Positions 1 through 3,464 of a DNA stretch of 3,464 bases are shown here, in pieces (the first letter of the stretch is position 1; each line of letters starts with the position of its first letter). The translations under genes and the position numbers were made by a program. The notes under the pieces were generated by a model. The model saw only the letters and a program-made list of their open reading frames with translations, ran no database searches and was not told where the DNA came from. This DNA comes from Giardia intestinalis (lineage: Eukaryota). The stretch lies in assembly GCA_000002435.2 (NCBI GenBank), contig AACB03000015.1; one strand, given 5' to 3'.

Positions 1-221
1 GCGGCCCCAACGACCAGACGTGCCTGGACTGCAAGACTCCTGGCGAGAACGTGCAGCTCGATAAAGAAAGCTGCGGCCCCACCTGCCCGCAGAACTCCTC
101 CCCCAACCAAACGTCTGCGAGTGCAACCCGGGATTCAACCTGAACGATAGAAAAGACGCGTGCGAGGCGGTTGCCAACACAAACTGCGCACAAGAGCTGC
201 AGAATGCGGGCTGCAAGACGT
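1..221 (+). repeat. Repeat copy 1, 221 bp, 5'-truncated by the window edge in phase.
   Basis: One deletion in the A-run 109-111 (A3 versus canonical A4). A local aaaga to aagaa change at 65-69 turns canonical LDKR into LDKE in frame. Confidence 0.9.
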
Positions 222-3200
222 GCGGCCCAACGACCAGACGTGCCTGGACTGCAAGACTCCTGGCGAGAACGGTGCAGCTCGATAAAAGAAGCTGCGGCCC
301 ACCTGCCCGCAGAACTCCTCCCCCAACCAAAACGTCTGCGAGTGCAACCCGGGATTCAACCTGAACGATAGAAAAGACGCGTGCGAGGCGGTTGCCAACA
401 CAAACTGCGCACAAGAGCTGCAGAATGCGGGCTGCAAGACGTGCGGCCCCAACGACCAGACGTGCCTGGACTGCAAGACTCCTGGCGAGAACGTGCAGCT
501 CGATAAAAGAAGCTGCGGCCCCACCTGCCCGCAGAACTCCTCCCCCAACCAAAACGTCTGCGAGTGCAACCCGGGATTCAACCTGAACGATAGAAAAGAC
601 GCGTGCGAGGCGGTTGCCAACACAAACTGCGCACAAGAGCTGCAGAATGCGGGCTGCAAGACGTGCGGCCCCAACGACCAGACGTGCCTGGACTGCAAGA
701 CTCCTGGCGAGAACGTGCAGCTCGATAAAAGAAGCTGCGGCCCCACCTGCCCGCAGAACTCCTCCCCCAACCAAAACGTCTGCGGAGTGCAACCCGGGAT
801 TCAACCTGAACGATAGAAAGACGCGTGCGAGGCGGTTGCCAACACAAACTGCGCACAAGAGCTGCAGAATGCGGGCTGCAAGACGTGCGGCCCCAACGAC
901 CAGACGTGCCTGGACTGCAAGACTCCTGGCGAGAACGTGCAGCTCGATAAAAGAAGCTGCGGCCCACCTGCCCGCAGAACTCCTCCCCCAACCAAACGTC
1001 TGCGAGTGCAACCCGGGATTCAACCTGAACGATAGAAAAGACGCGTGCGAGGCGGTTGCCAACACAAACTGCGCACAAGAGCTGCAGAATGCGGGCTGCA
1101 AGACGTGCGGCCCCAACGACCAGACGTGCCTGGACTGCAAGACTCCTGGCGAGAACGTGCAGCTCGATAAAAGAAGCTGCGGCCCCACCTGCCCGCAGAA
1201 CTCCTCCCCCAACCAAAACGTCTGCGAGTGCAACCCGGGATTCAACCTGAACGATAGAAAAGACGCGTGCGAGGCGGTTGCCAACACAAACTGCGCACAA
1301 GAGCTGCAGAATGCGGGCTGCAAGGACGTGCGGCCCCAACGGACCAGACGTGCCTGGACTGCAAGACTCCTGGCGAGAACGTGCAGCTCGATAAAAGAAG
1401 CTGCGGCCCCACCTGCCCGCAGAACTCCTCCCCAACCAAAACGTCTGCGAGTGCAACCCGGGATTCAACCTGAACGATAGAAAAGACGCGTGCGAGGCGG
1501 TTGCCACACCAAACTGCGCACAAGAGCTGCAGAATGCGGGCTGCAAGACGTGCGGCCCCAACGACCAGACGTGCCTGGACTGCAGACTCCTGGCCGAGAA
1601 CGTGCAGTCGATAAAAGAAGCTGCGGCCCCACCTGCCCGCAGAACTCCTCCCCCAACCAAAACGTCTGCGAGTGCAACCCGGGATTCAACCTGAACGATA
1701 GAAAAGACGCGTGCGAGGCGGTTGCCAACACAAACTGCGCACAAGAGCTGCAGAATGCGGGCTGCAAGACGTGCGGCCCCAACGACCAGACGTGCCTGGA
1801 CTGCAAGACTCCTGGCGAGAACGTGCAGCTCGATAAAAGAAGCTGCGGCCCCACCTGCCCGCAGAACTCCTCCCCAACCAAAACGTCTGCGAGTGCAACC
1901 GGGATTCAACTTGAACGATAGAAAAGACGCGTGCGAGGCGGTTGCCAACACAAACTGCGCACAAGAGCTGCAGAATGCGGGCTGCAAGACGTGCGGCCCC
2001 AACGACCAGACGTGCCTGGACTGCAAGACTCCTGGCGAGAACGTGCAGCTCGATAAAAGAAGCTGCGGCCCCACCTGCCCGCAGAACTCCTCCCCCAACC
2101 AAAACGTCTGCGAGTGCAACCCGGGATTCAACCTGAACGATAGAAAAGACGCGTGCGAGGCGGTTGCCAACACAAACTGCGCACAAGAGCTGCAGAATGC
2201 GGGCTGCAAGACGTGCGGCCCAACGACCAGACGTGCCTGGACTGCAAGATCCTGGCGAGAACGTGCAGCTCGATAAAAGAAGCTGCGGCCCCACCTGCCC
2301 GCAGAACTCCTCCCCAACCAAAACGTCTGCGAGTGCAACCCGGGATTCAACCTGAACGATAGAAAGACGCGTGCGAGGCGGTTGCCAACACAAACTGCGC
2401 ACAAGAGCTGCAGAATGCGCGGGCTGCAAGACGTGCGGCCCCAACGACCAGACGTGCCTGGACTGCAAGACTCCTGGCGAGAACGTGCAGCTCGATAAAA
2501 GAAGCTGCGGCCCACCTGCCCGCAGGCTCCCCCCCAACCAAAACGTCTGCGAGTGCAACCCGGGATTCAACCTGAACGATAGAAAAGACGCGTGCGAGGC
2601 GGTTGCCAACACAAACTGCGCACAAGAGCTGCAGAATGCGGGCTGCAAGACGTGCGGCCCCAACGACCAGACGTGCCTGGACTGCAAAGACTCCTGGCGA
2701 GAACGTGCAGCTCGATAAAAGAAGCTGCGGCCCCACCTGCCCGCAGAACTCCCCCCCAACCAAAACGTCTGCGAGTGCAACCCGGGATTCAACCTGAACG
2801 ATAGAAAAGACGCGTGCGAGGCGGTTGCCAACACAAACTGCGCACAAGAGCTGCAGAATGCGGGCTGCAAGACGTGCGGCCCCAACGACCAGACGTGCCT
2901 GGACTGCAAGACTCCTGGCGAAACGTGCAGCTCGATAAAAGAAGCTGCGGCCCCACCTGCCGCAGAACTCCTCCCCAACCAAAACGTCTGCGAGTGCAAC
3001 CCGGGATTCAACCTGAACGATAGAAAAGACGCGTGCGAGGCGGTTGCCACACAAATGCGCACAAGAGCTGCAGAATGCGGGCTGCAAGACGTGCGGCCCC
3101 AACGACCAGACGTGCCTGGACTGCAAGATCCTGGCGAGAAACGTGCAGCTCGATAAAGAGCTGCGGCCCCACCTGCCCGCAGAACTCCTCCCCAACCAAA

Positions 3201-3464
3201 ACGTCTGCGAGTGCAACCCGGGATTCAACTGAACGATAGAAAAGAGCGTGCGAGGCGGTTGCCAACACAAACTGCGCACAAGAGCTGCAGAATGCGGGCT
3301 GCAAGACGTGCGGCCCCAACGACCAGACGTGCCTGGACTGCAAGACTCCTGGCGGAACGTGCAGCTCGATAAAAGAAGCTGCCGGCCCCACCTGCCCGCA
3401 GAACTCCTCCCCCAACCAAAACGTCTGCGAGTTGCAACCCGGGATTCAACCTGAACGATAGAAA
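1..3464 (+). CDS. Internal fragment, 5' and 3' partial, of a gene for a large tandem-repeat cysteine-rich protein with 74-aa EGF-like modules of 10 Cys each. The frame is interrupted by about 43 indels, which are either sequencing errors in an intact gene or a degenerate, pseudogenised array.
   Basis: In the canonical unit only one + frame lacks stops. The +1 frame has TGA in aacctgaacg, and the +2 frame has TAA in cgataaaag and TAG in cgatagaaa. The open frame shows GC3 of about 80%, with 59 of 74 third positions G or C, and an invariant TGC Cys codon ten times per unit. It carries the EGF_2-type pattern CECNPGFNLNDRKDAC. The longest uninterrupted in-frame stretches of this frame are about 300-784, 996-1324, 1609-1872 and 1900-2219. 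The window begins in codon phase 3 with gc|ggc|ccc|aac. No start or stop of the real gene lies in the window. Confidence 0.6.
222..442 (+). repeat. Repeat copy 2, 221 bp.
   Basis: Deletion of c in run 226-228; insertion of g at 271-272; deletion of c in run 298-300. Confidence 0.9.
443..664 (+). repeat. Repeat copy 3, 222 bp, canonical unit with an intact 74-codon frame.
   Basis: Identical to copy 10 (1993-2214). Translates in frame, with codon starts at 442, 445 and so on, to CGPNDQTCLDCKTPGENVQLDKRSCGPTCPQNSSPNQNVCECNPGFNLNDRKDACEAVANTNCAQELQNAGCKT. Confidence 0.95.
665..886 (+). repeat. Repeat copy 4, 222 bp, with a compensating indel pair.
   Basis: Insertion of g at 784-785; deletion of a in run 817-819. 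The shifted stretch between them contains an in-frame TAG at 814-816, which is the end of track ORF 493..816. Confidence 0.9.
887..1106 (+). repeat. Repeat copy 5, 220 bp.
   Basis: Deletion in C-run 963-965; deletion in A-run 994-996. Confidence 0.9.
1107..1329 (+). repeat. Repeat copy 6, 223 bp.
   Basis: Single insertion of g at 1324-1325 (caaggacg versus caagacg). Confidence 0.9.
1330..1551 (+). repeat. Repeat copy 7, 222 bp.
   Basis: Insertion of g at 1341-1342; deletion in C-run 1430-1433 (C4 versus C5). ccaacacaaa becomes ccacaccaaa at 1504-1513, a deletion of a plus an insertion of c, or two substitutions. Confidence 0.88.
1552..1772 (+). repeat. Repeat copy 8, 221 bp.
   Basis: Deletion of a at 1584 (tgcagactcc); insertion of c at 1594-1595 (tggccgag); deletion of c at 1607/1608 (gcagtcgat). 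Confidence 0.9.
1773..1992 (+). repeat. Repeat copy 9, 220 bp.
   Basis: Deletion in C-run 1872-1875; deletion in C-run 1899-1900 (caaccggg). C to T substitution at 1911, which is CTG to TTG and synonymous for Leu in the coding frame. Confidence 0.9.
1993..2214 (+). repeat. Repeat copy 10, 222 bp, canonical.
   Basis: Identical to copy 3. Confidence 0.95.
2215..2434 (+). repeat. Repeat copy 11, 220 bp.
   Basis: Deletions in C-run 2219-2221, at 2249/2250 (aagatcctgg), in C-run 2312-2315 and in A-run 2363-2365. A 2-bp insertion at 2418-2420 (gaatgcgcgggc). Confidence 0.88.
2435..2653 (+). repeat. Repeat copy 12, 219 bp.
   Basis: Deletion in C-run 2511-2513. At 2523-2535, cagaactcctccccc is replaced by caggctccccccc, a net loss of 2 bp together with an a to g change. 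Confidence 0.85.
2654..2875 (+). repeat. Repeat copy 13, 222 bp.
   Basis: Insertion in A-run 2686-2688 (tgcaaagac). Loss of t near 2752, so cct ccc cc becomes ccccccc. Confidence 0.88.
2876..3092 (+). repeat. Repeat copy 14, 217 bp.
   Basis: Five single-base deletions: g at about 2921 (ggcgaaacg), C-run 2960-2961, C-run 2973-2976, a at 3049 and c at 3055/3056 (acaaatgcgc). Confidence 0.88.
3093..3309 (+). repeat. Repeat copy 15, 217 bp, the most damaged copy.
   Basis: Deletion at 3128/3129; insertion in A-run 3139-3141; 2 bp lost in 3155-3160 (gataaagagctgc); deletion in C-run 3190-3193; deletion of c at 3229 (caactgaac); deletion of c at 3245/3246 (aagagcgtg). Confidence 0.88.
3310..3464 (+). 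repeat. Repeat copy 16, 155 bp, 3'-truncated by the window edge.
   Basis: Deletion of a at 3354/3355 (ggcggaacg); insertion of c at 3382-3383 (gctgccggc); insertion of t at 3432-3433 (gagttgcaa). Confidence 0.88.

Follow-up and report, generated by a model that had tools for sequence, protein, structure and literature searches.

A tandem array encoding a cysteine-rich VSP module

The window examined here is a stretch of 3,464 nucleotides from Giardia intestinalis (assembly GCA_000002435.2, contig AACB03000015.1), identical with the unplaced scaffold NW_024037086.1 of isolate WB C6 (supplement of bioRxiv 10.1101/2022.03.07.483299), and it consists of a tandem array that encodes a cysteine-rich module of 74 amino acids belonging to the VSP family. 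Tandem Repeats Finder gave a period of 222 bp, with 15.7 copies and 97% matches over positions 1-3464, and exact 222-mers occur twice, at 443 and 1993; the 222-bp repeat unit is far beyond chance. The repeat spans all 3464 bp, with no unique flank at either end of the window, and no coding sequence for a signal peptide, a transmembrane segment or a CRGKA tail was found in any of the window's six frames. Additionally, Rfam gave 0 matches to the window at gathering thresholds, and metagenome contigs scanned for an exact 35-mer gave 0 matches.

An initial annotation, made from the letters of the window, had described a module of 74 residues with 10 cysteines and 11 asparagines, and had given the spacing of its cysteines. 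Translation of 442-663 on the plus strand yields CGPNDQTCLDCKTPGENVQLDKRSCGPTCPQNSSPNQNVCECNPGFNLNDRKDACEAVANTNCAQELQNAGCKT, which agrees with that description in length, composition and cysteine spacing. The coordinates given with it, 443-664, were one base out: read from there, the sequence is out of frame and runs into a stop, and the correct codon phase is 442-663. Cysteine makes up 13.5% of the module (10/74) and each unit contributes two CXXC motifs (CLDC, and CKTC at the junction between units), as expected of VSPs, which are recognized by about 11-13% cysteine and multiple CXXC motifs. The consensus unit has no stop in the plus frame, where G+C content is 0.80 at third codon positions (GC3) versus 0.51 at first (GC1) and 0.49 at second positions (GC2).

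A full-length gene carrying the module is a VSP on chromosome 4

An exhaustive HMMER protein search with the longest frameshift-free translation of the array (162 aa, 298-783) recovered a 1029-aa protein, XP_037901961.1 / KAE8303776.1, that is 99% identical (E = 0), is named 'VSP [Giardia intestinalis]' and is located on a 2.76-Mb contig. Its layout is simple: 22 aa (MLVGFLLVCATVLAKYSGKTSS) are followed by 13 identical 74-aa units (EAVANTNC...NDRKDAC) and then by 45 aa comprising a stalk, a transmembrane segment and CRGKA. The N terminus starts MLVGFLLVCATVLA, with a signal peptide scored 'Y' in the preprint supplement, and the C terminus has a single transmembrane helix and then the CRGKA tail that marks VSPs. 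The same supplement identifies XP_037901961.1 as GL50803_0050165 on NC_051859.1 (chromosome 4), and lists for it the initiator (Inr) taatgtt, 133 Cys, 26 CXXC motifs, a signal peptide, a transmembrane domain, CRGKA and the 3' motif CACTTAGGTAGTAAACGTAT (bioRxiv 10.1101/2022.03.07.483299). VSP genes are marked by an initiator T/CAATGTT where translation starts and by a conserved extended polyadenylation signal downstream of the stop. A quoted 333-nt repeat stretch of the GL50803_0050165 coding sequence shows exact DNA identity to window 385-717, and the unique 5' leader of the gene was not found in the window.

The Pfam VSP family PF03302 scored 39.4 bits on XP_037901961.1 (cutoff 31.4; residues 600-1029), and neither the isolated module nor a 3-unit concatenate matched it. 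Because one or three modules give no VSP match in Pfam, the family assignment is taken from full-length relatives. Tandem copies of the module make up almost all of the ectodomain of XP_037901961.1, which is a type I membrane protein and a VSP. The expectation of an extracellular, disulfide-rich modular protein was borne out, as the module is the building block of a cysteine-rich modular membrane protein with a signal peptide, a transmembrane helix and CRGKA. A side observation is that each module contains one N-x-S/T sequon (residue 32, NSS; for example window 535-543), so that the full protein has 13 candidate sites for N-glycosylation.

In our view the window very probably represents an internal part of the tandem-repeat ectodomain of a G. 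intestinalis WB VSP, either GL50803_0050165 itself or a longer allele or copy, and its frameshifts very probably stem from PacBio errors that were left uncorrected in a leftover contig. In such a protein, the signal peptide, 13 modules, short stalk, transmembrane helix and CRGKA tail would together produce a disulfide-rich rod coating the trophozoite surface. Established VSP biology suggests further properties: the protein would belong to the coat antigens whose mutually exclusive expression serves antigenic variation, its CXXC- and disulfide-rich fold may confer protease resistance, and its identical repeats could present a multivalent, probably immunodominant epitope. On the same grounds, the perfect DNA identity among units may promote unequal recombination, and with it changes in copy number.

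Frameshifts in the array resemble sequencing errors

Differences between copies were scored by aligning the window to an ideal array of the canonical unit. The alignment contains 48 events (1.4% per base), divided very unevenly between 44 single-base indels (32 deletions and 12 insertions) and 4 substitutions. Indel lengths are never a multiple of three, and 31 of the 44 indels lie next to an identical base, in homopolymer context. Because 44 indels, 31 of them homopolymeric, stand against 4 substitutions, we interpret the differences as a long-read error pattern and not as diverging coding repeats. True divergence between copies was considered as a candidate and was rejected on the 44:4 ratio.

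Error density also climbs toward the 3' end of the window, where 21 of the 48 events fall within the last ~960 bases (window 2500-3464). This climb would be consistent with read support falling at a contig end.

The way in which the assembly was made offers a source for such a contig. PacBio RS II reads that mapped to none of the five chromosome scaffolds went into a separate canu assembly, which produced 30 small scaffolds, and the assembly paper reports gene truncation through homopolymer indels (PMC7000408). The window would be one such leftover contig, built from reads unmapped to the chromosomes, and its frameshifts would be PacBio errors that escaped correction.

It is unlikely, by comparison, that the scaffold is a real and separate VSP pseudogene array, degenerate through genuine frameshift mutations. 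Decay of that kind would bring substitutions as well as indels, which is not the 44 to 4 proportion seen here, and it would have to account for indels concentrated in homopolymer runs and for an error density that rises toward one contig end. The existence of about 208 pseudo-VSPs in Giardia WB (PMC7000408) gives the idea some footing, as do the unplaced status of the scaffold and its excess of units over the chromosome-4 gene. Additionally, the preprint puts high cysteine protein (HCP) models without a signal peptide under 'pseudogenes type II' (bioRxiv 10.1101/2022.03.07.483299), and both gene models in the window are without a signal peptide and a transmembrane domain. However, over 333 nt without errors the window and the intact gene have the same DNA sequence, and the assembly paper itself reports both homopolymer errors and an unmapped-read origin for small scaffolds (PMC7000408).

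The minus strand of the array carries open reading frames (ORFs) of 645 aa (578-2515), 458 aa (1686-3062) and 310 aa (2347-3279), which raises the question of whether the expressed product lies there. Antisense ORFs of up to 645 aa arise because the consensus unit is stop-free in two of its three minus-strand frames; they are open only through these repeat frames, hop frames at indels and encode low-complexity Arg/Ala/Leu-rich sequence. In contrast, the plus frame gives a signal peptide, a transmembrane helix and CRGKA in the full gene, invariant cysteines in homologues and the high GC3 of 0.80. We therefore regard coding on the opposite strand as extremely unlikely, whatever the length of its ORFs. 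Antisense VSP RNAs are known as regulators and are not known to code for protein.

Gene models annotated on the scaffold

Two gene models are annotated in the window, GL50803_0050443 and GL50803_0050444 (Table 1), and the records for both are named 'High cysteine protein [Giardia duodenalis/intestinalis]'. Both begin with the out-of-frame peptide MRAARRAAPTTRRAW..., and single-base indels shift both of them into and out of the true frame. An HCP is understood as a genuine cysteine-rich ORF without a transmembrane segment, and neither model is such an ORF; they look like frameshift artefacts of sequencing errors. The preprint reports that unplaced scaffolds are without any complete VSP and that most 'HCPs' are probably pseudogenes (bioRxiv 10.1101/2022.03.07.483299). 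For curation, NW_024037086.1 and its two models are best handled as error-laden repeat sequence of VSP GL50803_0050165.

Table 1. Features of the window, with positions counted from its first base
Feature	Position	Strand	Basis
Tandem array, 15.7 copies of a 222-bp (74-codon) unit	1-3464	+	Tandem Repeats Finder and alignment to ideal array
Longest frameshift-free stretch of the array, 162 aa, 2.2 units; query and structure-model input	298-783	+	In-frame translation
Module in native phase, EAVANTNC...NDRKDAC, as delimited in the full-length VSP	385-606	+	Unit boundaries of XP_037901961.1 and single-unit XP_001705829
Canonical 74-aa module, CGPNDQ...AGCKT, in the phase of the initial annotation	442-663	+	Translation; 443-664 is out of frame
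GL50803_0050443 / XP_037901525.1 / KAE8301199.1, 'High cysteine protein', 277 aa	647-1480	+	ORF list and supplement: 834 nt, no signal peptide, no transmembrane domain
GL50803_0050444 / XP_037901526.1 / KAE8301200.1, 'High cysteine protein', 173 aa	1755-2276	+	ORF list and supplement: 522 nt, no signal peptide, no transmembrane domain

Copy number and earlier descriptions of the gene

Tandem-repeat vsp genes have been catalogued before. Adam et al. 2010 listed 30 of them in WB, with units of 105-516 bp, among which 222-nt units were assigned to vsp13 (8 copies, chromosome 4, TAATGTT, 725 aa, 93 Cys, 18 CXXC) and to vsp15 (3 copies, 300 aa, 33 Cys), and they cautioned that the assembly condensed repeat numbers (PMC2996952). 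Alleles of vspA6 and of vspC5 vary in copy number, and immunodominance is documented for the vspA6 repeat (PMC2996952). In the 2022 preprint, tandem-repeat VSPs make up 36 of 136 (bioRxiv 10.1101/2022.03.07.483299).

A version of XP_037901961.1 with n units would have 3 + 10n cysteines and 2n CXXC motifs, so that n = 9 gives 93 Cys and 18 CXXC, the values tabulated for vsp13; the length of vsp13 is off by 8 aa from the 9-unit version. On the strength of these sequence features, vsp13 is probably GL50803_0050165. The number of units differs across three representations of apparently one gene: apparently 8-9 in the 2007 Sanger assembly (vsp13), 13 on the 2020 chromosome 4 and at least 15.7 in the scaffold. 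Allelic variation in copy number or collapse during assembly may explain these differing counts, and the excess of the scaffold over the 13 placed units suggests that the tetraploid genome may carry a longer allele or copy.

Compared directly, GL50803_0050165 and the window share organism, isolate, an identical 74-aa module and their DNA over the 333 nt compared. They differ in that the gene has 13 units together with a signal peptide, a transmembrane helix and CRGKA, whereas the window has at least 15.7 units without flanks and with 48 sequence errors. Several points weigh against the favoured interpretation. With at least 15.7 units and no flank, against 13 placed units, the window is not a simple duplicate of the assembled locus, and the extra units call for a longer allele, for a second locus, or for reads that were mis-assembled or chimeric. 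Additionally, the comparison with the chromosomal coding sequence covers 333 of its 3090 nt, and disulfide connectivity and metal binding are inferred.

The design of the gene is a familiar one. In vspA6/CRP170 (195-bp repeat, about 22 copies) and vspC5 (105-bp repeat, about 25 copies), a short 5' leader is likewise followed by many identical repeats, and in vspC5 these extend to the conserved 3' transmembrane/CRGKA region (PMC2996952). This likeness is drawn from their descriptions, and both genes differ from the window in repeat sequence and length, which here is 222 bp.

Predicted structure and likeness to EGF-like and furin-like domains

AlphaFold2 was given 2.2 units (298-783) with a 10-sequence module-level alignment. 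The resulting model was confident, which supports the initial annotation, with a mean pLDDT of 86.9 and no segment below 50. In each modelled module a short helix (AQELQ) precedes a succession of short beta-hairpins.

A Foldseek comparison with the PDB had no match at E <= 1e-3; weak matches began at E 0.028, with TM-scores of 0.24 or less. Such low TM-scores are what a flexible rod would be expected to give. The weak matches listed were arrays of EGF domains (Pfs25, LDLR, EMR2), furin-like or receptor cysteine-rich domains (RSPO2, insulin receptor, HER3, EGFR), TNFR-type domains and other EGF-domain ectodomains.

The proposal of an EGF-like core held at the level of pattern and not at that of profile. 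The PROSITE EGF_2-type pattern C-x-C-x(2)-[GP]-[FYW]-x(4,8)-C matches CECNPGFNLNDRKDAC as claimed, and the EGF_1 pattern has no match in the module. One module remains below the Pfam thresholds (cEGF 16.4 bits against 26.6; FXa_inhibition 14.2 against 33.4), and searches with one and with three modules returned sub-threshold or borderline matches only, to cEGF, TNFR_nem, RANK_CRD_2 and hEGF. When an EGF profile was run on all 13 repeats, the summed score of 123.9 bits passed, with no single stretch significant. A sequence search of the PDB gave only factor IX EGF2, at E = 0.089-0.2, and none below E < 0.05.

A second suggestion was that the CxxC spacing is furin-like or VSP-like. The VSP-like part is literally correct, since the full-length protein is a Giardia VSP; Pfam furin-like and growth-factor-receptor families gave no match at E <= 10 for one or three modules. 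Overall, neither the furin-like repeats (R-spondin Fu1-Fu2, and the cysteine-rich regions of EGFR/HER and insulin receptor) nor the EGF-like domains (factor IX EGF2, Pfs25, NELL1) gave a significant profile or fold match to one module, and the short AQELQ helix predicted in each module is extra relative to both. On the predicted model, the module may work like a furin-like or EGF-like disulfide-rich hairpin unit, while belonging to neither family at the profile level. In this broad sense the structural reading of the initial annotation was largely correct.

A further reading, which we regard as possible rather than probable, adds two separate elements to the internal-fragment interpretation. 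The first is a real longer array of at least 16 units, with heterogeneity among the tetraploid WB C6 genome copies or within the culture. The second is a composite fold of the 74-aa unit, in which a short helix, furin-like hairpins and an EGF-like hairpin would be combined.

No solved VSP ectodomain structure came up in a literature search limited to 2021 onward. With a confident model of such a module, it could become easier to design constructs for a first experimental VSP structure, or repeat-based antigens.

Related modules in other Giardia proteins

Related modules are present at other copy numbers, from 1 to 26, in other VSPs. The 142-aa VSP XP_001705829 has exactly one unit, in the native phase, with a near-identical signal peptide before it and the transmembrane/CRGKA end after it. 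Its module is 63% identical to that of the window (BLASTP E = 6e-29), and PF03302 scores 69.7 bits over residues 20-142. Other VSPs carry two (ESU37980), three (XP_001708046) or seven copies (XP_001709860.2), and the preprint supplement includes a 1983-aa VSP with 26 (bioRxiv 10.1101/2022.03.07.483299). Homologous modules of 69, 75 or 76 aa occur in 2 to 7 tandem copies in assemblage A VSPs, and P0009 (GSB_153417) and two unnamed ENA/Logan proteins also bear them. Copies of the module inside one gene are usually identical.

Across the 10-sequence alignment, 9 of the 10 cysteines of the module never vary, and the remaining one is almost invariant. The related VSPs, with modules of 69-76 aa, have in common with the window the 10-Cys skeleton, the landmarks CKTC...C.xC...C.C..G[YF] and a module that adjoins the membrane, and several have a near-identical MLVGFLLVCA signal peptide. 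They differ in identity to the window's module (32-63%), in loop lengths and in copy number.

These relatives bear directly on the initial suggestion that the module might be a previously undescribed cysteine-rich repeat family, which we regard as refuted. What speaks for it is that one module has no above-threshold match in Pfam, none in the PDB at E < 0.05 and none in Foldseek at E <= 1e-3, and that a search of the literature from 2021 onward turned up no solved VSP structure. However, an identical module is the annotated repeat of VSP GL50803_0050165 / XP_037901961.1, the single ectodomain module of XP_001705829 is 63% identical and falls within the PF03302 match at residues 20-142, genes with 222-nt vsp repeats were tabulated in 2010 (PMC2996952), and related 69-76-aa modules are present in many annotated VSPs and in a high cysteine membrane protein (HCMP). 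Earlier descriptions already cover the gene, its family and the phenomenon of variable copy number in tandem-repeat VSPs. As a discovery the module carries little weight, and its value is chiefly curatorial.

The searches themselves differed in what they recovered. A word-indexed protein search overlooked the 99%-identical XP_037901961.1 and gave only the window's own artefactual model and the 142-aa VSP. The word index seems to under-collect highly repetitive queries or targets.

Four of the relatives, P0002 (XP_001705829), P0004 (XP_037901961.1), P0005 and P0013, have a near-identical signal peptide and leader, MLVGFLLVCATVLAK[DY]SGKT.., followed by modules that differ and that number 1, 13, 3 and 7 copies, respectively. 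Judged from these sequences, they resemble a subgroup of VSPs whose 5' end is shared, presumably akin to the vspC5 group.

The module also extends beyond VSPs. XP_001705521, an HCMP that is not a VSP and has another cytoplasmic tail, contains two module-like units (residues ~386-479, 38% identity) directly before its transmembrane helix. Thus, both families, VSP and HCMP, have this module as an element close to the membrane.

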